Positions 1 to 64,000 of a stretch of 64,000 bases of DNA are shown one piece after another. Below the pieces are notes generated by a model, which did no database searches, was not told where the DNA came from, and saw only the letters and a program-made list of their open reading frames with translations. The position numbers and the translations under genes are program-made. Position 1 is the first letter of the stretch. Every line of letters begins with the position of its first letter. This DNA comes from Heterodontus francisci (lineage: Eukaryota), in NCBI RefSeq assembly GCF_036365525.1, contig NC_090373.1, positions 40,649,590 through 40,713,589 of the forward strand, written 5' to 3'.

Positions 1-3000
1 ACACCAATCCAAGCACCGTCACCAGTCCACGCACCGTCACCAATCCACGCACCGTCACCAATCCACGTACCGTCACCAATCCACGCAGTCACCAATCCAC
101 TCAGCATCACCAATCGACTCTCCAACACCAATCCACTCGGCATCAGCAATCCACTCTCTGACACCAATATACTCACCGTCGCCAATGCACTCACCGTCAC
201 CAATGCACTCACCATCGCCAATCTACTCACCGACACCAATCTTCTCACCGACACCAATAGCCTCACCGACACCAAAAGCCTCACCGACACCAATACACGC
301 ACCGACACCAAACCACTCACCATCACCAATACATTCACCGTCAACAATCCACTCACCGTCAACAATCTATTCATCGACACCAACATGCATACCGACACCA
401 ATACATCCCCAACACCAATCCAGTTGGCGTCACCAATCCACTCGGAATCATCAATCCACTCGGAATTACCAATATACGCACTGACTCCAAACTACTCATT
501 GTCGCCAATGCACTCGGCATCACCAATCCACTCACCGATACCAATACACTCACCGACACCAATCCACTCACCAACACCAATACACGCACCGAAACCAAAC
601 CACTCACCGTCACCAAGACACAAACCGACACCAATCCACTCGGCATCACCAATCCACTCAGCGACACCAATCCACTCAGCGACACCAATACACTCAGCAT
701 CAGCAATGCACGCACTGACATCAAACCACTCACCGTCACCAATCCACTCGGCATCCCCAATCCAATCAGCATCACCAATCCACGTGGCAACACCAATCCA
801 ATCAGCATCACCAATACACTCAATGACACCAATCCAAGCACCGTCACCAGTCCACGCACCGTCACCAATCCACGCACCGTCACCAATCCACGCAGTCACC
901 AATCCACGCAGTCACCAATCCACTCAGCATCACCAATCGACTCTCCAACACCAATCCACTCGGCATCAGCAATCCACTCTCTGACACCAATATACTCACC
1001 GTCGCCAATGCACTCACCGTCGCCAATGCACTCACCATCACCAATCTACTCACCGACACCAATCTTCTCACCGACACCAATAGCCTCACCGACACCAAAA
1101 GCCTCACCGACACCAATACACGCACCGACACCAAACCACTCACCATCACCAATACATTCACCGACACCAATCCACTCGTCATTACCAATCCACTCTCTGA
1201 CACCTATACTCACCATCACCAATCCACTCACCATCGCCAATTCACCCACCGTCACCCATCCACTCACCGTCACCCATCCACGCACCATCACCCATCCACG
1301 CACCATCACCCATCCACTCACCGACAGCAATACATGCACCGAAACCAAACCACTCACCGTCACCACTACACAAACCGACACCAATCCACTCGGCATCACC
1401 AATCCACTCACCGACACCGATACACTCAGTGACACCGATACACTCAGCGACACCAATATACTCATCATCACCAATGCACGCACTGACATCAAACCACTCA
1501 CCGTCACCAATCCACTCGGCATCACCAATCCAATCAGCATCACCAATACACTCAACGACACCAATCCAGTCACCGTCGCCAATCCAGTCACCGTCGCCAA
1601 TCCACGCACCGTTGCCAATCCACGCACCGTCACCAATCCACTCGGCGACAACAATCCACTCGGCGACAACAATCCACTCACTGTCACCAATCCATTCGGC
1701 GTCACCAATCCATTCGGCATCACCAATCCACTCGGCATCACCAATCCACTCGGCATCACCAATCGACTCTCCAACACCAATCCACTCGGCATCAGCAATC
1801 CACTCTCTGACACCAATATACTCACCGTCACCAATGCACTCACCGTCACCAATCCACTCACCGACACCAATCCACTCACCGACACCAATACACTCACCGA
1901 CACCAATACACTCACCGACACCAATCCACGCACCGACACCAATCCACTCACTGACACCAATCCACTCACTGACACCAATCCACTCAGCATCACCAATCCA
2001 CCCAGCATCACCAATCCACCCAGCATCACCAATCCACCCAGCATCTCCAATCCACTCACCGACACCCTTAGTCTCACCGATACACTCACCGACACCGATC
2101 CACTCGGTGACACCAATCCACTCGGTGACACCAATCCACTCGGTGACACCAATACACTCGGTGACACCAATCCACTCACCAACACCAATACATTCACCAA
2201 CACCAATACACACAGCAACACCAATACACTCACCGACACCCTTAGACTCACCAACACCCTTAACCTCACCGACACACTCACCGTCACCAATCTACTAACC
2301 ATCGCCAATGCACTCAGTGTCACCAATCCACTCACCAACACCAATACACTCACCGACGCCAATACACTCACCGACGCCAATACACACACCGACGCCAATA
2401 CACACCGACGCCAATACACACCGACGCCAATACACACCGACGCCAATACACTCACCGACACCAATACACACACCAACACCAATAGCCTCACCGACACCAA
2501 TAGCCTCACCGACACCAATAGCCTCACCGACACCAAACCACTCACCATCCCCAATACATTCACCAACACCAATACACACGGCATCACCAATCCACTCGGC
2601 ATCACCAATCCACTCAGCGGCACCAATATATACATCATCACAAATACAAGCACTGACACCAAACCACTCACCGTCACCAATCCACTCACCGACACTAATC
2701 CACTCAGCGTCACCAATCCACTCAGCACCACCAATCCACGCACCGACACTAATCCACGCTCCGACACCAATATACTCATCATCACCAAACCACTCACCAA
2801 CACCAATACACTCACCGACACCAATACACTCACTGACACCAATACATTCACCGACACTAATTCACTCGGCGTCACCAATATGCTCACCTTCACCAATCTG
2901 CTCTGCGTCACCAATATGCTCAGCGTCACCAATATGCTCAGCGTCACCAATCCACTCGGCATCACCAATCCATTCGGCATCACCAATTCACTCCGCATCA

Positions 3001-6000
3001 CCAATCTACCCAGCATCACCAATCCACTCACCGACACCCTTAGACTCACCAACACACTCACTGACACCGATACACTCTCTGACACCAATCCACTCGGTGA
3101 CACCAATCCACTCGGCGACACCAATCCACTCACCGTCACCAATCTACTCACTGACACCAATCCACTCACCATCGCCAATGCACTCAGCATCACCAATCCA
3201 CTCACCGACACCAATCTACTCACAGATGCCAATACACTCACCGACACCAATACACTCACCATCACCAATACACTCACCGATACCAATCCACTCACCGACA
3301 CCAATCCACTCACCGACACCAATCCACTCACCGACACCAATCCACTCACCATCGCCAATCCACTCGGCATCACCAATGCACTCACCAAGACCAATATACT
3401 CACTGTCACCAATCCACTCACTGACACCAATATATTTATCGTCACCAATACCTGCATCATCACCAAACCACCCACCTTAACCAATCCACTCGGCATCGCC
3501 AATCCACTCGGCATCACCAATACACTCGGCATCACCAATACACTCGGCATCACCAACCCGCTCACCGTCACCAATACGCTCACTGACACCAACCCACTCA
3601 CCGTCACCAAAGTGCTCACCGAGACCAATCCACTCACCGTCACCAATCAACTCGGCATCACAAATATACTCATCATCACTAATACATCCGAAGAAGGGTC
3701 GCTGACCCGAAACGTTAACTCTGCTTCTCTTTCCACAGATGCTGCCAGACCTGCTGAGTGATTCCAGCATTTCTTGTTTTTGTATCACTAATACACTCAC
3801 TGAAACCAAACCACTCACTGTCACCAATACACTCGGCATCACCAATCAACTCAGCATCACCAAACCACTGACCGACACCAATCCGCTCACCATCACCAAT
3901 ACACTCACCGACACCAATACACTCACCGACACCAATAAACTCATCGTCACCAGTACACGTACCAACACCAAACTACTCACTGTCGCCAATCCACTCGGCA
4001 TCACCAACCAACCCGGCATCACTACTCCACTCGGCATCACCAATCCACTCACCGACACCAATGCACTCACCGACACCAATACACTCACCGACACCAATAC
4101 ACTCACCAACACCAATCCACTTTGCATCAGCAATCCACTCGGCATCACCAAACCAATCACCGACAGCAATATACTCATTATAACCAATCCACTCACCGAT
4201 ACCAATCCACTCACTGACACCAATCCACTCACTGACACCAATCCACTCACTGACACCAATCCACTCAGAGACACCAACATACTCACCATCACCAATACGC
4301 ACCAAAACCAAACCACTCACTGTCACCGATACACTCAACACCAATCCACTCAGCATTAGCAATCCACTTGGCATTCCCAATACACTCACCATCAACAATA
4401 CTCTCTCCGACACCAGTCCACTCACTGACACCAATACACTCAGCGACACCAATACACTCATCATCACCAATACAAGCACCGACACCAAACCACTTACCGT
4501 CACCAATACACTCACCGACACCAATGTACTCATCATCACCAAAACATACACTGACACCAAACCACTCACCATCACAAATCCACTTGGCATCACCAATCCA
4601 CTCGGCATCACCAATCCACTCACCGACACCAATCTACTCACCGACACCAATCCACTCGGCTTCACCAATAGACTCACTGACATTAATACACTCCGCGAGA
4701 CCAATATACTCATAATCACCAATACACACACTGAAACCAAACCACTCAGCGTCACCAATCCACTCAGCATCACAATTCCACCGGCATCACCAATCCACTC
4801 GGCATCACCAATCCTCCGACCAGCACCAATACACTCACCGACACCAGTACACTCACTGACACAAATTCACTCGGCATCACCAATACACTGACCGTCAAGA
4901 ATCTGCTCGCCGTCACCAATACACGCACCGACTCCAAACCACTCACCATCACCAATCCACTCGGCATCACCAACCACTCGGCATCACCAATACACGCACC
5001 GGCACCAATCCACTCGGCATCACCAATCCACTCACCAACACCAATACACTCAGCGACACCAATACACTCAGCGACACCAATACAGGCACCGACAGCAAAC
5101 CATTCACTGTCACCAATACACTCACTGACACCAATATACTCGGCGTCACCAATCCACTCATCGACACCAATCCACTCGGCATCACCAATCCACTCACTGT
5201 CACCAATCCGCTCACTGTCACCAATCCACTCAGCATCACTGATCCACTCAGCATCACTGATCCACTCACCAACAGCAATACACTCAGCGACACCAATACA
5301 CTCAGCGACACCAATACACTCATCATAACCAATACAGGCACCGACAGCAAACCATTCACTGTCACCAATACACTCACTGACACTAATATACTCGGCATCA
5401 CCAATACACTCATCGACACCAATCCACTCGGTATCACCAATCCACTCACTGACACCAATCCGCTCACTGACACCAATCCACTCGGCATCACCAGTTCACC
5501 CGGCTTCACCAGTCCACCCGGCTTCACCAGTCCACTGAACATCACCAATCTACTCGGCATCACCAATACACTCACCGACACCAATACACTCACCGACACC
5601 AATACCCTCGGCATCACCAATCCGCTCACCGTCTGCAATATGCTCACCGTCACCAATCCATTCGGCATCACCAATCCACTCACCGACACCAATCCACTCG
5701 ACTTCACCAATAGACTCACTGACACTAATACACTCCGCGAGACCAATATACTCCACCAATACACACACTGAAACCAAACCACTCAGCGTCACCAATCCAC
5801 TCGGCATCACAAATCCACCGGCATCACCAATCCAATCGGCATCACCAATCCTCCAACCAGCACCAATACACTCACCGTCACCAGTACACTCACTGACACA
5901 AATTCACTCGGCATCGCCAATACACTGACCGTCACGAATCTGCTCGCCGTCACCAATACATGCACCGACACCAAACCACTAACCATCACCAATCCACTCG

Positions 6001-8628
6001 GCATCACCAACCACTCGGCATCACCAATACACACACCGGCACCAATCCAATCACCGTCACCAATCCACTCACTGACACCAATCCACTCGGCATCACCAAT
6101 CCACTCACCAACACCAATACACTCAGCGAAACCAATACACTCATCATAACCAATATAGGCACCGACAGCAATCCATTCACTGTCACCAATACACTCACTG
6201 ACACCAATATACTCGGCATCACCAATACACTCATCGACACCAATCCACTTATCGACACCAATCCACTCGGCATCACCAGTCCACCCGGCTTCACCAGTCC
6301 ACTGAACATCACCAATCTACTCGGCATCACCAATACACTCACCGACACCAATAAACTCACCAACACCAATACACTCACCGACACCAATACCCTCGGCATC
6401 CCCAATCCGCTCACCGTCTGCAATATGCTCACCGTCACCAATCCATTCGGCATCACCAATCCACTCACTGACACCAATCCACTCGACTTCACCAATAGAC
6501 TCACTGACACTAATACACTCCGCGAGACCAATATACTCCACCAATACACACACTGAAACCAAACCACTCAGCGTCACCAATCCACTCGGCATCACAAATC
6601 CACCGGCATCACCAATCCACTCGGCATCACCAATCCTCCAACCAGCACCAATACACTCACCGACACCAGTACACTCACTGACACAAATTCACTCGGCATC
6701 GCCAATACACTGACCGTCACGAATCTGCTCGCCGTCACCAATACATGCACCGACACCAAACCACTAACCATCACCAATCCACTCGGCATCACCAACCACT
6801 CGGCATCACCAATACACACACCGGCACCAATCCAATCACCGTCACCAATCCACTCACTGACACCAATCCACTCGGCATCACCAATCCACTCACCAACACC
6901 AATACACTCAGCAAAACCAATACACTCATCATAACCAATACAGGCGCCGACAGCAAACCATTCACTGTCACCAATACACTCACTGACACCAATATACTCG
7001 GCATCACCAATACACTCATCAACACCAATCCACTCATCGACACCAATCCACTTGGCATCACCAATCCACTCGGCATCACCAATCCACTCACCGACGCCGA
7101 TCCACTCGGCATCACTTATCCACCCGGCATCACTGATCCACTTGGCATCACCAATCCACTCACTGACACCAATACACTCAGCGACACCAACATACTCATC
7201 CTCACCAATACACGCACTGACACCAATCCACTCGGCATCACCAATCCACTCAGCATCACCAGTCCACCCGGCTTCACCAGTCCACCCGGCTTAACCAGTC
7301 CACCCGGCTTAACCAGTACACTCACCGACACCAATACACTCACCGACACAAATACCCTCGGCATCACCAATCCGCTCACTGTCTGCAATGTGCTCACCGT
7401 CACCAATATGCTCACCATCACCAATCCACTCGGGATCACCAATCCACTCGGGATCACCAATCCACTCGGGATCACCAATCCACTCACCGACGCAAATACA
7501 TTCACCATCACCAATCCAGTCATCGACACCAATCCAGTAATCGACACCAATCCACTCACCGACACCAATCCACCCGGCATCACCAATCCACTCACCAACA
7601 CCAATCTATTCACCAACACCAATCTATTCACCGACACCAAACTATTCACTGACACCAAGCCACTCACCGCCACCAATCCACTTGGCAACACCAATCCACT
7701 AACAATTACCAATCCAATCACAGTCACCAATACACTCACCGACACCAATACACTCACCGACACCAATAGACTCACCTATAACAATATACTCACCTACACC
7801 AATCCACCCGGCATCACCAATCCACTCGGCATCACCAATCCACTCACCGACGCCGATCCACTCGGCATCACTTATCCACCCGGCATCACTGATCCACTTG
7901 GCATCACCAATCCACTCACTGACACCAATACACTCAGCGACACCAACATACTCATCCTCACCAATACACGCACTGACACCAATCCACTCGGCATCACCAA
8001 TCCACTCAGCATCACAAGTCCACCCGGCTTCACCAGTCCACCCGGCTTAACCAGTCCACCCGGCTTAACCAGTACACTCACCGACACCAATACACTCACC
8101 GACACAAATACCCTCGGCATCACCAATCCGCTCACTGTCTGCAATATGCTCACCGTCACCAATATGCTCACCATCACCAATCCATTCGGCATCACCAATC
8201 CACTCGGGATCACCAATCCACTCGGGATCACCAATCCACTCACCGACGCAAATACATTCACCATCACCAATCCAGTCATCGACACCAATCCAGTAATCGA
8301 CACCAATCCACTCACCGACACCAATCCACCCGGCATCACCAATCCACTCACCAACGCCAATCTATTCACCAACACCAATCTATTCACCGCCACCAATCTA
8401 TTCACTGACACCAAGTCACTCACCGCCACCAATCCACTTGGCAACACCAATCCACTAACAATTACCAATCCAATCACAGTCACCAATACACTCACCGACA
8501 CCAATACACTCACCGACACCAATACACTCACCGATAACAATAGACTCACCGACACCAATACACCCGGCATCACCAATCCACTCACCATCACCAATCCACT
8601 CACCATCACCAATCCACTCAACAACACC
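1..8628. repeat. 18-bp tandem satellite (consensus ~CACCAATCCACTCACCGA / CACCAATCCACTCGGCAT), runs off the left edge
   Basis: Obvious 18-nt periodicity giving hexapeptide-repeat ORFs in several frames (TNPLTD, SPIHSP, VSGLVS, WIGDAE). Duplicated blocks occur at offsets of ~823, ~785 and ~756 nt. Confidence 0.97.
3687..3783 (+). mobile_element. Penelope-like element 3' (pLTR) stub inserted in the satellite
   Basis: TCCGAAGAAGGGTCGCTGACCCGAAACGTTAACTCTGC...CCAGCATTTCTTGTTTTTG matches the 3' end of the PLE copies at 38109-38205. It is flanked by the repeat variant ATCACTAATACA at 3675-3686 and 3784-3795 (probable TSD). Confidence 0.88.
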
Positions 8629-33395: not shown

Positions 33396-33667
33396 TGTAT
33401 CCCACTGCTTAGAATTCTGCTAATTAAAGCAATCTTTGTCAAAGTACAAAGCTGGAAGAGGCACCTGTTTTTTCAGTGAGCATTTCAAAAGCATGCTAGA
33501 GAAAAAGAAACACAAAAATGTTGCAATGATTTCCCGAGAATCAGGTCAACTTGCATCCATCCAGTTCCAAATATCTTTGAGATGATATAGAGTAAAGAAT
33601 TAGAAAAGAACTGCACATATTCCACTCAAAAATATATACATGTTGTACACTGAGTATAGAAACTCAC

Positions 33668-33853
33668 GTTTACATTGTGGGGTCTTCCAATTATTACTCC
33701 ACATTCCATCTTCTCTGCAAATAGCTATTGCTTGTTGACTAGATTCCAGCAGGAAGCCTTCACTGCACTGGTAGTTGACCTTGCTGCCCATGCTATAGTC
33801 TCTGCCAAAGACTGAGCCATTTCCAGGGGTTTTTGGAATACCACAACTGATGG
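33668..33853 (-). CDS. CSMD1: Next internal exon of the same CSMD gene (Sushi/CCP domain)
   Basis: 186 nt, phase 1-1, acceptor tttttttttcag|CC and donor AAAC|gtgagt. Translates (A)ISCGIPKTPGNGSVFGRDYSMGSKVNYQCSEGFLLESSQQAIAICREDGMWSNNWKTPQCK(P). The ESSQQA motif matches recalled CSMD1 and it splices in frame to the 63276 exon (CQ-AISC). Confidence 0.9.
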
Positions 33854-35888
33854 CTGAAAAAAAAGATGCAACTTAAATTTAGTTTGAACCTGACAAAACC
33901 TCCTTATGTGTTTTTAAGGTAGTCACAGTGCTCTACTAATGAAAAGCATGCAGCAGGGGGAAGATCTAGGATTTTCTTGTTGAGCCTAGATGAGCACTCC
34001 TGCTTCATAAGGAAAGTAAAAAAAAAAAATTAAAACTTACTTGTTGGGCCCAATCTTCGCCACTGTGTTGGCCTGACTGGAAGCTCACTGTCGCTTCCCA
34101 TTCATGCCACCCAGTAGAACATTAGAACATGCTAAAGTCAAAAATGAGCCCGCCGGTTTTTGGTGGGTTTCCTGACTGCCTGCTCAAGAGAATCGGAACC
34201 AATCAGCTTTAGATCGGGGAGGTAACTTCAGCAATTTTAACTGACCACATGTCTAGCTCCCACTGATCAGAGAGGTTTAAAATCCCCTCCTAGATCTTCA
34301 ATCACTTTGTTAAAAACTATGGGTGTTAAGTATAATCCCCTAATCAACATGTTGTCAAGGTAAGAACTACCAGAATGAAATGTGACCAATGTAGACATAG
34401 AGTGCAGTCACTAGTTGGGTCATAATTCTATTGTAGTACATTTACAAATAGTTACAATATACAGGGCATTAAAATGTGTGAAAATCATAACAGTGAATTA
34501 AACTTATTTGATGCACATAAATTACAGTAAATGATAATATTAGGGTCCTCAAATATTCATGGTACAATGCATAATGTAAAACAAAACATCCCTAATACTG
34601 TGGGCCTGTTAGCCCAATTTTCAAATTTGCATGTTGAGAAATATACCTTCAAGCAATATCCAATAAAGCATTATTCTATATAAAGGCTCACTGCCTTCGG
34701 AAAAATGTGCCTGAAGAGAAACAAGAGAGAAGTTCCGTCCCTTCTTATGTCACAATATTAATGGATTTTGTCATGGATTGCAGCAGATTTTAGATCATTA
34801 TGCTGGTTATTTTTAAGCCAGCAAAGCATGTTTGGCAAGCAATTTTTTTAGTGATGGTACTGCCCTTTTAAGAAAATTCCATAATGATGTTGTTACACAA
34901 CACTACTGAACTGAGGTATACCATTGCAGAGTGAGCACAGCTGCAAGTTCTGTGTGACACTGCAGGCTGCACCTGGTTGAGCCTTGCTCTATGAAAGCAT
35001 GCGCAGGGCTTGACTTTCTCTGGCTATTCCTTAATAAGAAGAGTGAGCGAGTGGCTTCATTTATTACAAAGATTCAATAGTACGTTTATAAAAAGGCCAG
35101 CAGATTCAACAGACCACCTGGGAAATGCTTAATCTCAGTTGGACTGGATTTACACTACACTGTGAAACCTGAACGCAGTATGACAGACTCCTGGGCAGGA
35201 GCTCACACTGTGTGCCTTTAGTGTGCCTGAGAATCAGCCTCGGGACTTGAACTGCAAGTTATATTGCCACCTCAGTGTGGACACTCACCTGAAAACACTT
35301 CACACAGATATAAAAATGGGATTGTAACTGTTGTTTGAATGGTCCTTAACACATTCAGTCATAGAATGTATGAAAAGCACTTCTGTGGCCATTACACAGC
35401 TGCAGCTTTCAAAACACAATTTCACAGCGCATTCAGTACAGTCTGGGTCCAAGGTCATACTGATTCTAAAATGATGCTGTATTTAAAACATGCCAGCATT
35501 TTGAAAGCTGTAAAATTGCTTGAACAGTTTTGAAATAATCAGGAAGCGATTTGGATGAGTACGGTCAGCGATTAAATTGGATGTTAATCTAGTTCTAAAC
35601 CGAGGGGCTATAAATATAATATAGTCACTAGCATAGATACATTTAAGGGAAAGCGAGATGAACACATGAGGGAGAAAAGAACAGAAGATTATGCTGATAA
35701 CAGTAAGGTGAAGGCGGGTGGGGTGCGAGGTGCTTTGTGTACACCATAGATAAGTTGGAACGAATAGCCTGTTCCTGTGCTGTACATTCTATGTAATTTG
35801 CCAAACATGTACAAAGTGGGATAAAATAAAAACAAGAAATGCTGGAACCACTCAGCAGGTCTGGCAGCATCTGTGAAAAGAGAAGCAG

Positions 35889-51208: not shown

Positions 51209-53020
51209 TAAGTGTTTGCATATGAACTTTGTGGAAGTGAATTTCGGGCCTTTGATGTTCTGCCAGTGTAGGGGGCAGGGGCAGGGGCAGTGAGGTGGCT
51301 AGGGGTCTTTTCCTTCGAATTACTTTCTCTCCGCTCTTCTCACAACAGTAGATTACTAGGACGAAATCTCATCTGGTCTTGTTTTTTCTTTGTCACTTGT
51401 GCCTTTGGTCAGGGAGAGGGATTTGTTCAGTTAGATTTTAATCCTTGGGATGGGTTTTGAGTCCTTTGCTCCCCGCGATTGTGAACCCCATCCTTGCACT
51501 TACCTTGATGGGGACCAAGGTGGCATGATATTGGGCAACCTGAATTCAGTGAGATGTATTGGAATGCCTGCTTGGCACCTCACACCTTGCCAGCCTAGTA
51601 TAAATGAGGCTAGTGCCTCAAAGCCATGGCAATTGCTTGACTGTGGGTGACCGGGCAGCATTTATCCACCACTTGAACAGCCCAAATGAGGTTTATAAAA
51701 ATTTGTCTGAAATTTGCTGTCTATGATTTATGTGGAATCGTCCTCCACTGGTAGAGAGATCTGCGGATTTTATTTTACAATGTCATTTTATTTTTTAATT
51801 AGTCATTTTGGACGTTAGATAAGTACGTGCGATTACATTGTGGCACAATGGGTAGATCAGGACAGCTTCAATCTATCCAATTTCATACCTCTCGAACTGT
51901 GTAACTCTAAAGCTCACTCCTTCTGTAAACTGTAAATCCCTTTCCTCTAGTCTTCACTCTCTTTATTATGCCTCCCAGTCTCCACTCTATGTCTCGTCTT
52001 TTGTCTCTCATTCTCTTTCTACATGCCCCTCTCTCTGTTTCTATATATCGGTCATTGTTAGATAATAGACTATACTTTTTCTGTAGCAGGGTATCCAATG
52101 GTGTCTGCCTTTAGTTAGATTTGCCATCGCCCTTGAATGTTCAAACTTTTTCATGGCAGGCTGCTAACAGTATGAGCTGGTAGCAGTGCAGTGAGGGAAA
52201 CAGGACATCTGGGATTGGAGCAAACAGGGCAATGAACAGGGTACCTTCTTAACCAATGTATGTATGTGAAATTCAAAGCACGAGGACTGCGAAGCTGTGT
52301 AAATTAAGAGTGAGGGTAAATTCATTGTCAAATCAGGTACAGAAAAAGAAATAAAGAGAGGGAAAGAAAGATTGGATTCAGAGAGAAAAAAAGAGACAGA
52401 AAGGAGAAGTAGAAACAAAATACATTTTACATTTTTATTATTTCCAACAATTAAAACCTTAAGAAATGAGACTCCACATTATAGTTAATTTTCAGTGCCA
52501 TAAAGGTTGTTTGGCAGTAAATCACAGTTCTCACAACATTAAAATATTAGACTGGAATGGATGAGGCTTAACTTTCTGTGTTGAGTTTAGTTTGTATCTA
52601 CTGCACAAATACAGTGACTAACTGCAGAGAAACACATCTCGGACTGCAACTTTTGGATTTCTAGGTTTTTATCACACATCCTCCCCTATCCATGAATAAT
52701 AGGGGAAGCCATTAGCCTCACCTTTATCTTGACAACAAATTCTGGGTCAATGAATTACTCCATACTTTCTGTCATACCAGGAAAGAGGCTGCCCAGAGTG
52801 GTGTGCGTGTGCGTGAGGGCATGGGGGTGTTAGTCTTTGGCCCTGCTGGTTGGTCAGGAAGGAGAAGAATGAACTAAGCAGTAACGCTTGTGTCAGTGTG
52901 GGCTGGTGGATGGTCTCCTCCTTTCACCATTTCAATAAAGGCACGGGCCACAGACAGCTATGTGAAGAACAGAAGCTTCAGGTGAGCTGATAGGGTGGTA
53001 TTATGATCACAGGTAGGTCA

Positions 53021-53182
53021 ACAAACAAGAAACGAAGCGTCAGGTTCATCAAGCACGAAGTTGGCGGCCTGTGGATCAGCATCAAGGGAGGCAGGGAAAT
53101 CAAGCTGCCAATCCTGATCTCAAAGATCTTCAAAGGTCTGGCAGCCGACAAGACCAAGGCTCTATATGTGGGTGACACCATC
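53021..53182 (+). pseudogene. SNTB1: Orphan fragment of a syntrophin PDZ domain (beta-1-syntrophin-like)
   Basis: [54 protein letters not shown] versus recalled SNTB1 [54 protein letters not shown]. The GLGI loop is mutated to GLWI and the fragment is truncated at both ends. Confidence 0.88.
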
Positions 53183-53362
53183 GTAACACCCTGGATACCC
53201 CTTCCCCTGGCACCCCCTTCCCCTGCACCCCCTCCCCTACCCCCCCTGCAGCCCCCCTCGCACCCCCTTCCCTCCACCCCCTCCCCCCGCACCCCTCCCG
53301 CCCTGCACACTCTTCCCCCCACCTCCTCCCACCGGCATCCACCTATCCCTGAGCAGGGACCC

Positions 53363-56300
53363 TAACAATCCCACTGCCTTGTGGGCGTCTTGGGAGAGAC
53401 TAAGGCTAAGGGAGTAAACCCTAACAGAAAGTCCGGAGCGAAACCTCGAAGGCGGTCATGTATTACTTTTGATATGCTTCCAGCAGTTCCTGCAGCCATA
53501 CTGGTGCCAAACGTCGTGCTCTGCACTCCTTTGGACCCCACCAGGAAGGCCGAGAGGGGGTTTTGAAGCTTGGGCAACTCACAACCTCCATACATCTACC
53601 CAGGCATGCGCCATGGAGAGGTCACTCCATAGTCGCCGCACAGTGACCAAAACAGCACGGAAGGCAGCAGTTACGGGTTATAAGCCCAGCTCAATTGGCA
53701 TAGAGATTGGGTGCCACAGATTGCCTTTGTTGGTGGGAGTGGTCATTGCATCCCACTGGACAGCTACCACCCGCCTCAAACCGGGCAACCCCTGGTCAGT
53801 AAGGTTCAGTCCCGCCACAGTCCACCTGCTTCAATGGGTGCTTGGAGCTGAGGGTCATTGCCCGACAAGTGGAATGTAATACCGCACCAAACAGCACGAC
53901 AAAAAAAAGGAAAGAAGGTACCAGCCCTTTGTTTTGCAAGCTGGAAATTCAGAACTGTGAGGTCGGAAGACCTCAAAGAAATCAACGATTCTCGGAAGAC
54001 CGCCATCATTAACAACGAGCTCAGTAGACTCAATGTGACCATTGCAGCACTTCAGGAGACACGCCTCCCTATGAGTGGATCTCTAAGAGAGCAAGATTAC
54101 ACCTTCTTCTGACAGGGTAAGGATTCTGAAGAACCAAGACAGCATGGAGTGGGCTTCGCCATCAGAAACTCCTTGCTCAGCATGATAGAGCCACCTTCAA
54201 ATGGCTCGGAACGCATACTGTCCATCCGACTGCTCACCACCTCTGATCCAGTACACCTACTCAGCATCTATGCTCCAACACTCTGCTCCCCACCTGAAGC
54301 TAAAGACCAGTTCTACGAGGAACTCCATAATATCATTAGTAGCATCCCCAACACCGAACACCTGTTCCTGCTGGGGAACTTTAATGCCAGGGTTGGGGCC
54401 GACCATGACTCATGGCCCTCCTGCCTTGGGCGTTATGGCGTAGGAAGGATGAATGAGAATGGACAGAGACTGCTTGGGTTCTGTACCTATCACAACCTCT
54501 GCATCACCAACTCGTTCTTTCACACTAAACCCTGTCACCCGGTATCTTGGAGGCACCCAAGATCACGTCATTGGCACCAGCTGGACCTCATTGCCACAAG
54601 GTGAGCCTCTTTAAATAGCGTTCAAATCACACGCAGCTTCCACAGTGTGGACTGCGATACCGACCACTCGCTGGTGTGCAGCAAGGTTAGACTCAAACCA
54701 AAGAAGCTGCATCACTCCAAGCAGAAGGGCCACCCGCGCATCAGCACTCGTAGAATTTCTTATCCACAGCTGTTACATAAGAAATTCACTTGAAAAAGCC
54801 CTTCAAAACATTGCTGCAGGGGATGCAGAGACTAAGTGGGCCCACAACAGAGGCGCCATCTATGACTCAGCAATGACCATCTATGGCAAATGTGTGAAGC
54901 AGAATGCAGATTGGTTTCAATCTCACTTTGAAGAGCTGGAACCTGTCATAGCCGCTAAGTGCATTGCACTGTTGAACTACAAGAAAGCCCCCAGTGAGTT
55001 AACATCCATAGCCCTTAAAGCAACCAGAAGCACTGCACAAAGGACAGCCAGGCGCTGCGCAAATGACTACTGGCAACACCTATGCAGTCATATTCAGCTG
55101 GCCTCCAACACCGGAAACATCAGAGGAATGTATGATGGCATTCAGAGAGCTTTTGGGCCAACCAACAGGAAGATTGCCCACCTCAAGTCTAAATCAGGGA
55201 CACAATCACTGAGCAACACAAGCAAATGGACCGCTGGGTGCAGCACTACCTAGAACTGTACTCCAAGGAAAATGTTGTCACTGAGACCACCCTCAATGCA
55301 ACCCAGTCTCTGCCCGTCATGGATGAGCTGGACGAACAGCCAACTAAATTGGAACTCAGTGATGCCATTGATTCTCTAGCCAGTGGAAAAGCCCCTGGGA
55401 AGGATGGCATTACCCCTGAAATAATCAAGAGTATATTTTCAGCACTCTACGAACTGCTTTGCCTGCGCTGGGATGAGGCAGCAGTACCACAGGATCATCA
55501 CCCTCTATTAGAACAAGGGTGACCGCGAGGACTGCATCGACTACCGTGGAATCTCCCTGCTCAGCATAGTGGGGAAAGTCTCTGCTTGTCGCTTTAAACA
55601 GGCTCCAGAAGCTGGCTGAGCGTGTCTGCCCTGAGGCACAGTGTGGCTTTCGAGCAGAGAGATCCACCATTGACATGCTATTCTCCCTTCGAAAGCTGCA
55701 GGAGAAATGCCAAGAACAATAGATGCCCCTCTACGTTACTTTCATTGATCTCACCAAAGCCTTTGACCTCGTCAGCAGACGTGGTCTCTTCAGACTACTA
55801 GCAAAGATCGGATGTCCACCAAAGCTACATCATCACCTCATTCCATGACAATATGAAAGGCACAATTCAACATAGCGGCGCCTCATCAGACCCCTTTCCT
55901 ATCCTGAGTGGCGTGAAACAGAGCTGTGTTCTTGCACCTACATGGTTTGGGATCTCCTCACTGCTGCTCTCACATGCGTTTAAGTCTTCAGAAGAAGGAA
56001 TTTTCCTCCACACAAGATCAGATGGCAAGTTGTTCAACCTTACCCATCTAAGAGCGAAGAACAAAGTATGGAAAGTCCTCATCAGGGAAACTCTCTATGC
56101 TGACGATGCTGTATTAACATCTCACACTGAAGAGTGCCTGCAGAGACTCATCGACAGGATTATGGCTGCCTGCAACGAATTTGGCCTAATCATCAGCCTC
56201 AAGAAAACGAACATCATGGGACAGGACGTCAGAAATGCTCCATCCATCAATATTGGCGACCACGCTCTGGAAGTGGTTCAAGAGTTCACCTACCTAGGCT

Positions 56301-57080
56301 CAACTATCACCAGTAACCTGTCTCTAGATGCAGAAATCAACAAGCGCATGGGAAAGGCTTCCACTGCTAAGTCCAGACTGGCCAAGAGAGAGTGGGAAAA
56401 TGGCGCACTGACACGGAACAGAAAAATCTGAGTGTATCAAGCCTGTGTCCTCAGTACCTTGCTCTACGGCAGCGAGACCTGGACAATGTATGTCAGCCAA
56501 GAGCGACATCTCAATTCATCCCATTTTCGCTGCTTCCGGAGAATCCTTGGCATCAGGTGGCAGGACCTTATCTCCAATGCAGAAGTCCTGGAGGCAGCCA
56601 ACATCCCCAGCATATACACACTACTGAGTCAGCGGCGCTTGAGATGGCTTGGCCATGTGAGCTGCATGGAAGATGGCAGGATCCCCAAAGACACATTGTA
56701 CAGCGAGCTGGACCGGCCGTCCAGGTCTCCGCTTTAAAGACGTCTGCAAACGCAACATGAAGTCCTGTGACATTGATCACAAGTCATGGGAGTCAGTTGC
56801 CAGTGATCGCCAGAGCTGGCAGGCAGCCATAAAGGCGGGGCTAAAGTGTGGCGAGTCGAAGAGACTTAGCAGTTGGCAGGAAAAAAGACAGAAGCGCAAG
56901 GAGAGAGCCAACTGTGTAACAGCCCCGACAAACAATTTTATCTGCAGCACCTGTGGAAGAGTCTGTCCCTTTAGAATTGGCCTTTATAGCCACTCCAGGC
57001 GCTGCTCCACAAACCACTGACCACCTCCAGGCGCTTACCCATTGTCTCTCGAGACAAGGAGGCCAAAGAAGAAGAAGAAG
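53363..57080 (+). mobile_element. Near full-length RTE-clade LINE, disabled by stops and frameshifts
   Basis: APE motifs (IAALQETRL, GVGFAI, SIYAPT, LLGNFNARVG), RT motifs (YRGISLLS, QCGFR, FIDLTKAFD, GVKQSCVLAP, LYADD, FTYLGS), C2H2 finger CSTCGRVC..IGLYSHSRRC and a (GAA)n tail. The 5' boundary is approximate. Confidence 0.95.
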
Positions 57081-57899
57081 GTCTTGTTGCGAAGGTTTGG
57101 GCAACATTAGATTGGGAGGGAGAAGTGGGGGTGGGGTGGGGTGGGGGGGGTGTGCAGGCTGAAGGTGAAGATGCAAGGTAGTTTGAGGCCTGACACATCA
57201 GAAAGTACAGTCAGCAATCAGGCTGTGGGCAGCAGTGCTGGTCCAGGAAGCAGAAAGGAAATAATTACAGGCAGGTCACTGCAGAACCTTTGCTGTTTGC
57301 TGTTTAGGTAGGGGTGATGAAGCATGAACTCAAAACTACTATTATTTATTTGTGTGCAGTTTATTATTTGATATAAATACCAATGAAACGTAGCAATTAA
57401 AAGATATTATAATCGACCCAATATAATAATGACTGGGATGTTGGGAATTGTTTTGTAGTTTGACGGCAAAAAACCTGTTTTTGGCGGAATGTGATTTTTT
57501 TTTGTGTTGGTACCAATTTTGATTAACACTACCAATAAGATTTTGGCATTTGTTTGGCCCCAGGTTACACTGCGCCGGAATTTAATTGGTTGAAAGGAAG
57601 GATGGAGGCCCCAAGTCTCGGATTTGATTGATCAAACTACATTCACACATCCTTCCATTTCCACAATTACATACACTCTCTTCCTTTTAATTCAATGTTG
57701 TATGAAATGTATCGAAATTTTGAAAAGAGACCCATTTCTGTTTCATTAAAACTGCTTAATTTGTCAATTGGATAATTCATTGTTTTTAGTAAAAACAGCA
57801 CCTTAGGTTAACAAGAGTAAAGTGGCTGCCTGGATTTATACAGAAAGAAAACTATTAATAAGTTAGATATTAAAGTATATTAATGCATCAGAGTATTAA

Positions 57900-58591: not shown

Positions 58592-61441
58592 TGTCATGTT
58601 GATCTCTCTGCAAAGTATGAGCATCTCCCTCCTGCCACTTGCAGAACAAGAGGGCATATAACAGGATGGCGACATCATGGACTGGCAGAGGGATGCCAGA
58701 CACCGGGCCTCTCTCCACGTCTGAGGATGAGGCACTAGAATTGGCAGGGACCCAGGGCGGCTGCTCCCTGTTTGACAGTGAGACTGGAGGCTCCAAGCAT
58801 ATATATATAATTTTCACAATAGACAAAATATCTTAAGTGCTTTAAGCAATAGAGATGTGCAGACTGAGCTCTGCAAGAGAGTGAGAATTGTCTTCCATCG
58901 ATATACAGTTCACTTCTGGAGACCCACATCACGTATGGTTGGCATGACGAGATCCGTACAGCAGAACCCACATGTTTGTGTTCTCTCACGCAGGTCGGCA
59001 TCCACAGGAGACTCAACCAGTAGGGGGACAGCCGTCCACCTCTGAGGAGGAATGCACCTGGAGGACTGTTGGTGGCCAGGCCCATGCAGAGCCCCAGGTT
59101 CATGATGAGCCTCTGATGTCGACACCACAAGGCATGCTGGAGTTGCAGAGAGAGGTAAGGTAACATCTGGTAAAGATGCCAGAGGCCATGAGCAGACGTT
59201 GGAGGAGTCCATCCATGCCATGAGTGCTGTCATGTCTCAGGCCTGTGAGAGCATGGCTTCCTCCATAGAGAGGTTGGTGACCCTCACGGAGAGTCAGATC
59301 CCATAGATGTGCATAGATCTGCACACCATCACCCTGGCCATGAGCTCAACACAGCAGTGGCAAGGCGAGAAATGGATGAGGCCCTGGAGTCTTCTCCCAC
59401 TCCTCGTCCTTCTCTGGTCAGCAGAGAGGTTCAAGTAAGCCTAGAAAGGGAGGAGGAGAGGCTGCCCTCCACATCTGGGGGCACCCCTCAGGGTACTCCG
59501 AATGTGGACACTGACTCCTCAGCCCATCTGCCAGTGAGCCCAGCTCCATCAGCTGCGATGCCCGAGTCCTGCAACAGCGCAGGAAACCTTCAGGCACCCG
59601 GGGCCCTCGAGGCCTCAGGCACCCAGAGGACGGCCACCGGTCATCTCAAGCCAAGGAGCAGCCTGATCAGCAGCCTGCCTCCAGCCCAGCTGCTCGCGAT
59701 GGGGGTCACACCTTATAGAAGCACTTGTAAACGTATAAAGAAAACCACACAAAGACACTTGGAAATCATAGGTGTTTGAAATTTGACATTTGCTTCATCA
59801 TATAAAGTTATTTTATTCAAGCCAGTAAGGTTCATTGTGTAAAAGTGATTATTCTATCATACATTAATTGTCAGCTGCTGACTTCCCCCTTCGTGGATTG
59901 CAAATGTAAGCACGGCCCTCATTTAAATATGATCTCCCATGGGCACTAACGCGTGGTTCAGCTGGGCACTGCGCATGGAACACAAATGGAAAGCAGATGA
60001 CAGACTACATGCATTGAGGTCAGCATTTATTAGATTCTCTGTGAGTGGGCATCAGGGTGTCTGGAAGCAGGTGATTATGAGATTATCTCTTGCCTCCTTG
60101 GCACATCACTCAATCTGCCTGGCCTCCAGTGCAAGGGCTTTACCTTCCAGGGGCGCTTCAGCCCTGCCCTCCTCGTTGGTGGAGGACTATCACTCAGGCA
60201 TCTCATCATCATGTAAGGCCTCCTTCCTCTGCAGTGTTATATTGTGCAGAGCACAGCAGACCACCACAATACATGAAACCCTCACTGCAGCAGACTGCAG
60301 ACCTCCACCAGTTCAACCTAGGTACCAGAATCTCATCTTCTGCAGCCCAATGGCTTGCTCAACGGCTGCTCAGGTGGAGCCATGACAAGTGTTGTACCTC
60401 TCCTCTGCTGCAGTGTGAGGGCTCCTCTCAGGTGTCAATGGCCATGTCTTCAGTGGGTAGCCCTTGTCCCCGAGAATCCATCCATGAAGGTGAGCAGGGG
60501 ACCTGTATAGCTGTGGCACCTGGCACTGTCAAGGTATGTAGGTGTTGTGGCTGCTTCCCAGGAAGTAGTCACACACCTGCAGGAAACACTTTTTGTGGTC
60601 CAAGACCAGTTGCACATCGATTGAATGGAAGCCCTTCCTGTTGATGAAGGCGGCAGGCTGGTATGTAGGAACCTTGATGGCCACATGTGTGCAATTTATC
60701 ACACCTTGTACCCGGGGGAACCAAGTGACAGCCCCGAATTCGATGGCCCTCTCTGCCTGGGTCGGTCTGGTATCACAAATAGTCGCCAGCCCCCTTGAAC
60801 AGGGCATTGATCACCTCCTTGATGCAGGGGTGAACTGTTGCCTGCGAGACCCCACATATCCCTGATGGATCCATGGAAAGATCCAGATGGATAAAAGTTC
60901 AGTGCCCCTGTGATCAAAGCTGCTGGCAGAGGAAGACTCCCAAATCCCATAGGTCGCAACTCGTCCTGCAGCAGGAAACATAGGTCGGTGACGGCCTCCC
61001 TAGAGAGGTGTACTCTTCGCTGACGATGCTGCCTGGACATTTGGAGGTAGCTAGTACACTGTCTGGCATAAGTGGGCCTTTTTGGCATGGCCGGCTGCTG
61101 TTGCTCTCGTCGTGGTGCTTCATGGACAAGCGCAGCTGCCTTTTGGCCCTCCCTCCATTGGAGGCGCTGCATCATGCCACCAGGGGTCCAAAAAGACAGG
61201 GTGTCTGAGAACCATGCCAGGTGACCTCTGGGCCTGCAAAGTGCCTTCGATGCAGAGGCGACCCTGCCATGGCAGTTTTCCCATTGCTCTTTCTCCCGGC
61301 AGACTCCCTGATGGCCCTCAGTGCCCACCCTTGCTAATAGCCAGCCCTCTCATCCAACAACCCAACAGTTTGGACACCCGATACAGCCACCCAAACCCCA
61401 GCGCCCCGCCCCACCCCACCCCACCCCCAACCCTTGCAGAG

Positions 61442-62590
61442 CACCCGGGACCCTGCTCACCCGGCACTCCCACCCGAGACCCTGCTCACCCGGCACCCCC
61501 ACCCGAGACCCTGCTCACCCAGCACTCCCACCCGGGACCCTGCTCACCCAGCACTCCCACCCGGGACCCTGCTCACCCAGCACTCCCACCCGGGACCCTG
61601 CTCACCCGGTACCCCCACCCGAGACCCTGCTCACCCAGCACTCCCACCCGGGACCCTGCTCACCCAGCACTCCCACCCGGGACCCTGCTCACCCGGTACC
61701 CCCACCCGAGACCCTGCTCACCCAGCACTCCCACCCGAGACCCTGCTCACCCGGTACCCCCCCTGCAGACCCTGCTCAGCCAGTTCTCCCACCCGAGACC
61801 CTGCTCACCCGGTACCCCCACTGCAGACCCTGCTCAGCCAGTTCTCCCACCCGAGACCCTGCTCACCCGGTACCCCCCCTGCAGACCCTGCTCAGCCAGT
61901 TCTCCCACCCGAGACCCTGCTCACCCGGTACCCCCACTGCAGACCCTGCTCAGCCAGTTCTCCCACCGGAGACCCTGCTCATCCGGAACTCCCACCTGAG
62001 TCTCTGTTCACCTGACACTCCCACCGGAGACTTTGCTCACCTGACACTCCCACCCGAGACCCTGCTCACCCGGTCCTCCCACCCGAGACCCTGCTCACCC
62101 GGTACTCCCACCCGAGACCCTGCTCACCCGGTACTCCCACCCGAGACCCTGCTCACCCGGACCTCCCACCTGAGACCCTGCTCGCCCGGTCCTCCACCTG
62201 AGACCCTGCTCACCCGGTCCTCCCACCCGAGACCCTGCTCACCCGGTCCTCCCACCCGAGACCCTGCTCACCCGGTCCTCCCACCCGAGACCCTGCTCAC
62301 CCGGTCCTCCCACCTGAGACCCTGCTCACCCGGTCCTCCCACCTGAGACCCTGCTCAGCCAGTACTCCCACCAAAGACCCTGCTCACCCAGTACTCCCAC
62401 CGGAGACCCTGCTCAGCCAGTACTCCCGCCTAAGACCCTGCTCACCCGATAGTCCCACCCGAGAACCTGCTCAGCCAGTACTCCCACCCAAGACCCTGCT
62501 CAGCCGGTACAACTACCCATGACCCTGCTCACCCGGTACTCCCACCCGAGACTCTACTTACCCAGCACACCCGCCCAAGACCCTGCTCAG
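61442..62590. repeat. 29-bp minisatellite (CCCACCCGAGACCCTGCTCACCCGGTACT) inside the Harbinger subterminal region
   Basis: 29-nt period is visible directly, and all three + frames give the same 29-aa repeat (3 x 29 nt). Confidence 0.95.
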
Positions 62591-63275
62591 TTGGTAATCA
62601 CACCCTAGACTATGACTGCCCTTGTGGACTACCCGAGACCAAGCCCATCCATGCAGAGTGCACTGCACTGTAGACCAGCAATGGCCTCTGCTCCCCACTT
62701 CCCCTGTGTGGTGCTGGTTATGGCTGCCTACCCGTCGCAGCACTGAGGACTTGCCTCAGTACCTCCAGCTTTCAACGGCCAGGAATCTGAAGGCATGTGA
62801 TGGCCACCTGTCGTGCACTTAATTCCAAGCCCCCCATTGAAGCATGATGAATTAGATGCTAATGCATTAAAATTAAGTGTTCATGCAATTTAAATAGCAT
62901 TCCTATTGCGTCGGGGCCGAGAGGCTGCCTTGGCGCTTACCCGGCATTGGCAAAGTCCGGAACTGAGGTCACGATGTCGGATTTTCAGATGGACGCATCC
63001 GACGTGATTCTCCAGCCCCCCACAACACCATTCCCACTCCAAATGGCCGCACTAAATTCAGCCCCTCATCATTCAAACAGCCAGAAGTGATACAAAATGT
63101 CAGAGCACTGTATTCAATCAGCGGCACTGAGATTAGTCAATGGTACACAAATAGAAGGTAATTAAAATAGGACATGTCTCTTTAGCACAGGCGGAAATCT
63201 AAAGGGGAAATGCCGTTTTAATACACAAAGCACTGAACTATCTAGTTATTGATTATAACCGTTACTAATTCTTAC

Positions 63276-63464
63276 CTTGACAAAGCGGAACTTCAGCATC
63301 CCACTGATACATGCCATTCGGATACCGCCTACAGGTGGCATTACTTCGACCAACCAACTGGTATCCGGCTTTACAGAAAAACTGCACCACGCTGTTGAGG
63401 GCACCTACTGTCTTATTCAGCACTCCGCCATTCAAAGGAACACTGTTCAAGCTACAATAGGAAG
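63276..63464 (-). CDS. CSMD1: Internal exon of a CUB and Sushi multiple domains gene (Sushi/CCP domain), CSMD1-like
   Basis: 189 nt, phase 1-1, acceptor ttttgtgtttccag|CT and donor CAAG|gtaaga. Translates (A)SYCSLNSVPLNGGVLNKTVGALNSVVQFFCKAGYQLVGRSNATCRRYPNGMYQWDAEVPLCQ, a 4-Cys Sushi pattern resembling recalled human CSMD1 ...GYRMVGHSNATCRRNPLGMYQWDSLTPLCQ. Paralogue assignment is from recalled sequence. Confidence 0.9.
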
Positions 63465-64000
63465 CTGGAAACACAAAAGGTGTATTCTCTGTTGAATTCC
63501 AACACTCATATAACTACAACATAAATATCAATGGAAAAGTCACAATTGCTCGAAAACTGGAATAACAGAATTGTCAGAAAGCTTCAACTGCAAGATCCCA
63601 TCTAAAATATTAACCTTAGTCCATCTTTCCTTTTGTGATGCTCGTTGATGTTGCATGACTCACGTGTTCACTTCTTAAGAAGGTGACACAGATTCTTAGT
63701 TAACTTATTCATTCATCATCATTATTAATTAATGCCTCGGTGACAATGAGTTAATCACACTCCAGCGGCTGCTCCACTGGCTTGTGCTATTTTTGTCCAT
63801 CACTTGGCACTCTCTCAGGGTCCACTGCAATGCAACCCAGCATTTCAGCAACTCAGAAACAAGAACTCATTTCAGAGGGCCATAATATTTGTTAAATTCC
63901 AAAGAAGTTAATTGCTGAATCAATTACAGAACCATTGCACTGGCGGGAAGCCATTACCTCCCCCTCCCCCACAAAAAAAGACCTCAAGCCAGATATAATA

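Follow-up and report, generated by a model that had tools for sequence, protein, structure and literature searches.

The syntrophin-like piece at positions 53,021–53,182 of the window, i.e. the whole 64,000-nt stretch of Heterodontus francisci DNA analyzed here, is probably the truncated, host-derived leader of a dead copy of a once-autonomous RTE-type LINE, whose branches carry spliced host 5′ exons, likely acquired via fusion RNAs made from host promoters. The SNTB1 capture from which the piece stems is old, was made elsewhere and is one step in a series.

Results

The window copy is a decayed LINE with a syntrophin leader

The window copy (53,024–57,079, plus strand; Table 1) is one 5′-truncated member of a dispersed RTE-type LINE. 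Translation of 53,021–53,182 gives a syntrophin PDZ piece, with beta-1-syntrophin as top PDB match (E 1e-19) and a match to positions 3–49 of 81 of the Pfam PDZ model, in agreement with the earlier sequence-only reading, which had also described correctly that no poly(A) follows and that C-rich DNA and a co-oriented LINE do; the C-rich DNA measures about 140–150 nt. The host-matching part, 53,024–53,182, is identical to the parent SNTB1 at 149 of 159 nt and represents codons 87–139, i.e. the 5′ part of the parent mRNA, where that reading had placed it. The LINE, announced as full-length, is full in extent but broken, its longest open frame being 212 aa; it gives Pfam matches to an endonuclease (below the curated cutoff) and a reverse transcriptase (RT), in the orientation of the syntrophin piece, and a (GAA)n tail ending at 57,079 closes it. 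A script found no repeat of at least 6 nt at the two ends of the copy. The broken GLGI loop reported earlier (GLWI) is present here, caused by a G>T change at 53,072, but is not a family trait: across 22 copies the residue is G in 18, as in the host, and W in 2.

The copy lies antisense within an intron of a minus-strand Sushi-domain gene, presumably CSMD1; homolog, atlas and PDB searches with the exons of this gene returned 'Sushi' only and not the name CSMD1. Elsewhere in the window, positions 1–8500 and 61000–63000 hold strongly C-rich skewed tracts, probably tandem repeats.

Table 1. Features of the window copy and of the gene around it (window coordinates)
Feature	Position	Strand	Remark
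Frame with Sushi-domain exon of surrounding gene	33603..33872	-	downstream side of host intron
Possible 5-nt target-site duplication, left copy	53015..53019	+	right copy 57079-57083; at this length within chance expectation
End of SNTB1 exon 1	53024..53053	+	5′ truncation point of window copy, 258 nt past parent ATG
SNTB1 exon 2, first 129 nt	53054..53182	+	joined to exon 1 without the 13.9-kb intron
Short linker	53183..53196	+	absent from host exon; fixed SNTB1-to-LINE junction, 91 nt before host exon 2 donor
C-rich variable-length repeat of LINE 5′ region (about 140-150 nt)	53197..53332	+	families A-C: its 3′ part only
LINE 5′ UTR	53333..53804	+	common to all branches; no ribozyme match
Broken single ORF, endonuclease + reverse transcriptase	53805..57020	+	1095 codons open in majority of 17 copies
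3′ UTR and (GAA)n tail	57021..57079	+	closes the LINE
Frame with Sushi-domain exon of surrounding gene	63268..63513	-	upstream side of host intron

The SNTB1 piece and the LINE are dispersed together

The fragment had been called isolated, which it is not: a DNA search with the syntrophin piece gave 40 scored candidates, all matching, and a protein search 61, of which 50 match. Among the 40 loci fetched, 38 carry both the piece and the LINE, and two are intact syntrophin paralogues (73% nucleotide identity); nine further loci, two of which may be one locus assembled twice, all carry both. The suspicion that a mobile element had captured the fragment and spread it genome-wide is thereby borne out, and the opposite idea, an older insert unrelated to the RTE, fails, as the piece and the LINE occur together at 38/38 and 9/9 non-gene loci. 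The junction pattern is found at 24 places in the genome; since 19 of these fall within 42 known copies, the family with the SNTB1 junction has roughly 50 copies. Leader and LINE are jointly flanked by target-site duplications of at least 9 nt in 11 of 41 copies versus 8 of 205 mismatched pairs (copies with both ends; 11 of 52 loci were dropped, their tail being absent).

The parent SNTB1 was located on contig C5 via the half of the PDZ domain that is absent from the element. Exon 1 lies at C5:193407610-901 and exon 2 starts at 193421794, with a GT-AG intron of 13.9 kb in between, and a transcript contig spans the joint of the two exons and continues into host sequence. The syntrophin paralogues on C16 and C17, at 73% nucleotide identity only, were rejected as parents. 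The intron is absent in 22/22 family-A copies, and the SNTB1 piece therefore passed through RNA. Fuller family-A copies reach back to the SNTB1 start codon, their leader comprising codons 1–139. The junction with the LINE lies mid-exon, 91 nt before the exon 2 donor, and is the same in 19 of 21 family-A copies.

The 13.9-kb intron (C5:193407901-193421794) is inside the PDZ-coding stretch of shark SNTB1; since the C16 and C17 paralogues have no intron there, and neither has mammalian SNTB1, it may represent an intron gain. At codon 84, the elements and the transcript of another organism share one base and the gene of this genome differs, for which reason the capture may predate a host change at this codon.

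The SNTB1 piece decays neutrally. A simple count gives pN/pS 0.65–0.71, but a value below 1 was rejected as a sign of selection, being an effect of the mutation spectrum: with expectations drawn from the element's own spectrum (LINE body), N/S is 1.94 observed versus 1.91 expected, with 11 stops versus 11.7 (p 0.95). The LINE copies are 92.3% alike pairwise and each is broken; a majority-rule frame built from 17 copies, however, runs through 1095 codons without a stop, therefore the source elements encoded their own machinery. No chimeric SNTB1–LINE contig was present among the matches listed for four sequencing runs, none recorded as RNA, a result that is silent on expression.

Further host exons are nested on the SNTB1 leader

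In family B, the first part of the SNTB1 piece is replaced by FAM122B exons 1 and 2, spliced (a 21-kb intron is lost) and ending exactly at the exon 2 donor. The FAM122B/SNTB1 junction is the same in 18 of 20 copies, and the host SNTB1 sequence before it is TG, not AG. Two derived bases of the window copy (335T and 340C) recur in most copies of family B, therefore family B descends from the window copy's sub-lineage of family A. In family C, a TNPO3 exon ending at its donor is joined to a CAG acceptor in inverted FAM122B, identically in 11 of 12 copies. The order of nesting is A (SNTB1), then B (FAM122B), then C (TNPO3). No source LINE copy was found in FAM122B intron 2, nor a sense source copy in the stretches examined within the 40 kb that follow the TNPO3 donor. 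In family C, about 30 nt that precede the TNPO3 ATG exon could not be placed in the host. SNTB1 exon 1 has 60% GC and a CpG observed/expected ratio of 0.72, and FAM122B 69% and 0.86, versus 46% and 0.41 for the window. We also observed that L057 and L135 have the same extra flank upstream of the FAM122B leader, i.e. a secondary 5′ transduction.

Other branches carry other leaders

In a survey based on the 5′ UTR, 30 loci were picked from 2201 candidates. Their leader is of family A or B at 3 loci, an antisense BCL2-family piece at 6, a mosaic at 11, GRHPR at 2 and unknown at 3, and the element is cut inside the C-rich tract at 5. The mosaic combines BCL2 with a piece that we take to be SLC35E3-like. 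For one leader of the family, the top named match is a horn shark protein. Contigs bridging the mosaic leader occur in sequencing runs of two organisms, therefore the mosaic branch is not confined to this genome. Upstream of this leader, L201 has a stretch that to our eye resembles a histone H2A coding sequence, with no Pfam match at E 0.05.

The GRHPR leader consists of exons 1–3, spliced and ending at the exon 3 donor at 14/14 loci, and bears extra layers: a DUF498 exon (two copies; presumably NDUFAF3-like), a kinase exon (one copy) and an agrin NtA piece (seven copies). The NDUFAF3-like exon is joined after an internal CAG, and the donor patterns predicted from the NDUFAF3-like and kinase leaders have one genome match each. 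Two GRHPR-like genes lie ~47 kb apart (C4:149865865 and C4:149913383), the leader matching the second. Six junctions were traced to a host locus (SNTB1, FAM122B, TNPO3, GRHPR, NDUFAF3-like and kinase; agrin, BCL2 and the rest are outside the six), and five of them fall exactly at a splice donor, SNTB1 being the exception. An AG acceptor is present at the TNPO3 and NDUFAF3-like joints and absent at that of FAM122B.

Pfam searches on 25 leader frames gave one clear match (Bcl-2), with leaders F, I and several single ones unmatched. More leaders, unassigned to a host gene, are carried by L207, L211, L212, L214, L215 and L224, by L203, L209, L220 and L223, by L204, L208 and L228, and by L213. Inversions at the 5′ end are frequent (L013, L045, L110, L112, L113, L133, L188 and L239) and could explain the antisense leaders.

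The inner 5′ motif has 227 exact genome matches; of its first 30 copies, none has its 5′ end at the motif, and in 28 the leader upstream recurs in at least one other copy. The motif, which is followed by the C-rich tract (L147, L201-L230), begins with an ATG from which a proline-rich frame extends; a short upstream ORF is one possible reading of it and an earlier capture another.

Outside CpG, branches diverge from their own majority by 2.7–3.4%, and the LINE-body tree is star-like (67 of 81 loci, 14 being dropped for short cover; branches are unresolved in it and monophyly is unsupported). By their sequences, the branches appear to have arisen in one burst.

Many copies start near captured start codons

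The 5′ end falls within 10 nt of the captured ATG in 15 of 22 family-A and 10 of 19 family-B copies, and just before an ATGG motif in 5 of 10 family-C copies and 3 of 6 copies of another leader. Host SNTB1 contigs extend 76–129 nt upstream of the element starts, and 14 near-full family-A copies have no further flank common to each other or to the host. Note that the nested variants imply several successive source copies. Because starts cluster near the ATG without shared flank and the sources were several and successive, the pattern suggests that transcription initiates inside the captured exon, which would then be a putative portable internal promoter; similarly placed ends could also result if the RNA was trimmed, or the RT stalled, at the start codon. 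In mammals, a start-codon element doubles as a YY1 transcription element (PMC2518114, available portion).

RTE elements are described, in the accessible parts of two sources, as having no promoter of their own, being transcribed within introns and being freed by ribozymes (PMC6765202; PMC8501958). In the LINE 5′ region, no Rfam ribozyme was found at E values up to 10 (three chance-level hits), and an HDV-like ribozyme descriptor matched none of five decayed copies. A pairing between the inner 5′ motif and the UTR was considered as a ribozyme and dropped, its order not being HDV-like.

Discussion

The spread of the leaders is best read as SVA_F1-like exon trapping and 5′ transduction, the LINE presumably being transcribed from host genes. 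A LINE copy would land in sense in an expressed host gene, the host promoter would drive a host-exon/LINE fusion RNA, by splicing or read-through, and the LINE proteins would copy this RNA with the host part still attached, giving a new branch. For families B and C and the GRHPR group, the host exon would have been spliced into the element at the source locus; for SNTB1, read-through from a truncated copy inserted in exon 2 and an RT template switch would fit equally well. Later copies would become sources in turn, probably transcribed from near the captured start codon. The sequence-only reading had proposed either 5′ transduction or a template switch: the SNTB1 junction alone is indecisive, and the sister leaders favor transduction based on splicing. 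A more far-reaching version, in which a LINE without promoter or ribozyme of its own regularly relays through host genes, traps first exons of housekeeping genes, uses a YY1/TISU-like captured start-codon sequence as portable promoter and collects trains of host exons, is tentative, and we regard it as possible rather than probable.

Sources in host genes compete above all with RT template switching, by which all leaders would come from jumps of the LINE RNA copy to co-packaged host mRNAs, chimeras with GC-rich exons being then amplified. Switching would account for the mid-exon SNTB1 junction with its non-host linker, the lack of AG at the family-B junction, the 1–2 nt that several junctions share on both sides, as template switches do, and the failure to find source copies in the host introns checked, all of which count against host-gene sources; the antisense and mosaic leaders (BCL2-like, SLC35E3-like), which need extra inversion steps if host genes are the source, also speak for it. 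Yet switching on mature mRNA has no reason to choose exon ends, where five of the six traced junctions lie, and two of the donor-end joints have an AG acceptor in the target. As a general explanation we consider it unlikely; for the SNTB1 step alone, its chances are about even.

Leaders might instead have been built at the DNA level, or by break repair with cDNA of host mRNAs, independently of LINE transcription. Spliced inserts can be captured at double-strand breaks, and mosaic and inverted leaders would be readily made in this way, but the junctions at donors, the same place 5′ of the LINE in all branches and the target-site duplications shared around leader and LINE render it very improbable. 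Scarcely credible is a functional or nested syntrophin exon, or captured peptides that selection maintained as proteins: the leaders of families A and B are open from the host ATG, B is fused in frame and the simple-count pN/pS is below 1, but the N/S ratio is as expected under neutrality, the frame of typical copies stops directly after the junction, the piece is multi-copy and the true gene is on C5. For the copies, a functional exon is already refuted.

Transduction of spliced host exons has its closest counterpart in SVA_F1 (MAST2 exon 1) and the chimpanzee pt_SVA_D6 (STK40 exon 1), where a GC-rich host 5′ exon was likewise spliced on, replacing the 5′ end of the element. According to the available parts of the sources, an SVA_F1-type capture gave a subfamily of tens of copies, to which later copies added exons of eight more genes (PMC6139936; PMC12593883), and the acceptor of pt_SVA_D6 cannot be reconstructed, similar to the acceptor problem met here (PMC12593883). 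As in SVA_F1, the host exon ends at its donor for FAM122B, TNPO3, GRHPR, NDUFAF3-like and kinase, though not for SNTB1, and the captured exons are rich in GC and CpG (SNTB1 exon 1 and FAM122B versus the window). Membership of the SVA family proper was rejected, since the element encodes its own endonuclease and RT, whereas SVA is non-autonomous and moved by L1. The shark LINE further differs from SVA_F1 in that host-type leaders are the rule in the sampled copies rather than one subfamily, and in that captures are multi-exon, nested three deep and often antisense, with the SNTB1 junction off the donor.

Promoterless RTE and R2-type LINEs with HDV-like or twister ribozymes would likewise depend on host transcription (PMC6765202; PMC8501958, as far as accessible), but the shark LINE has no ribozyme match and no clean native 5′ start, and its host part is kept and amplified. 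Foreign 5′ heads and uniform chimeric families are also known from RTE-derived SINEs (7SL, tRNA, snoRNA and 28S heads; PMC7245038, available sections), where, however, the heads are non-coding RNA on short non-autonomous derivatives and not mRNA exons on a full element.

The element has a single ORF with AP-type endonuclease and RT, a 3′ microsatellite tail and variable target-site duplications, as in the RTE clade, a label that we give tentatively from this anatomy and from sequence motifs. Processed pseudogenes and U6-L1 template-switch chimeras also consist of spliced host RNA copied to DNA, 5′ of a truncated LINE in the latter. Introns are removed here as in a processed pseudogene (22/22), but an mRNA 3′ end and poly(A) are lacking: the shark leader is the 5′ part of an mRNA, with one junction amplified to ~50 copies.

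In the articles covered, including the accessible part of PMC5753468 and with the Repbase and Dfam libraries outside the scope, we found no account of this shark RTE family or of mRNA-exon leaders on RTE elements; exon-trapped subfamilies are described for the non-autonomous primate SVA, and L1 5′ transduction is called rare, in the available text of PMC12593883. A coding LINE with nearly all sampled 5′ ends derived from the host would reveal by what route a LINE that has no promoter can renew its 5′ end. The turnover of LINE 5′ ends is a long-standing question, and each capture step is readable here in one genome. The family scatters tens of sense and antisense fragments of housekeeping and apoptosis genes, which confuses annotation and could, speculatively, feed small-RNA cross-talk.
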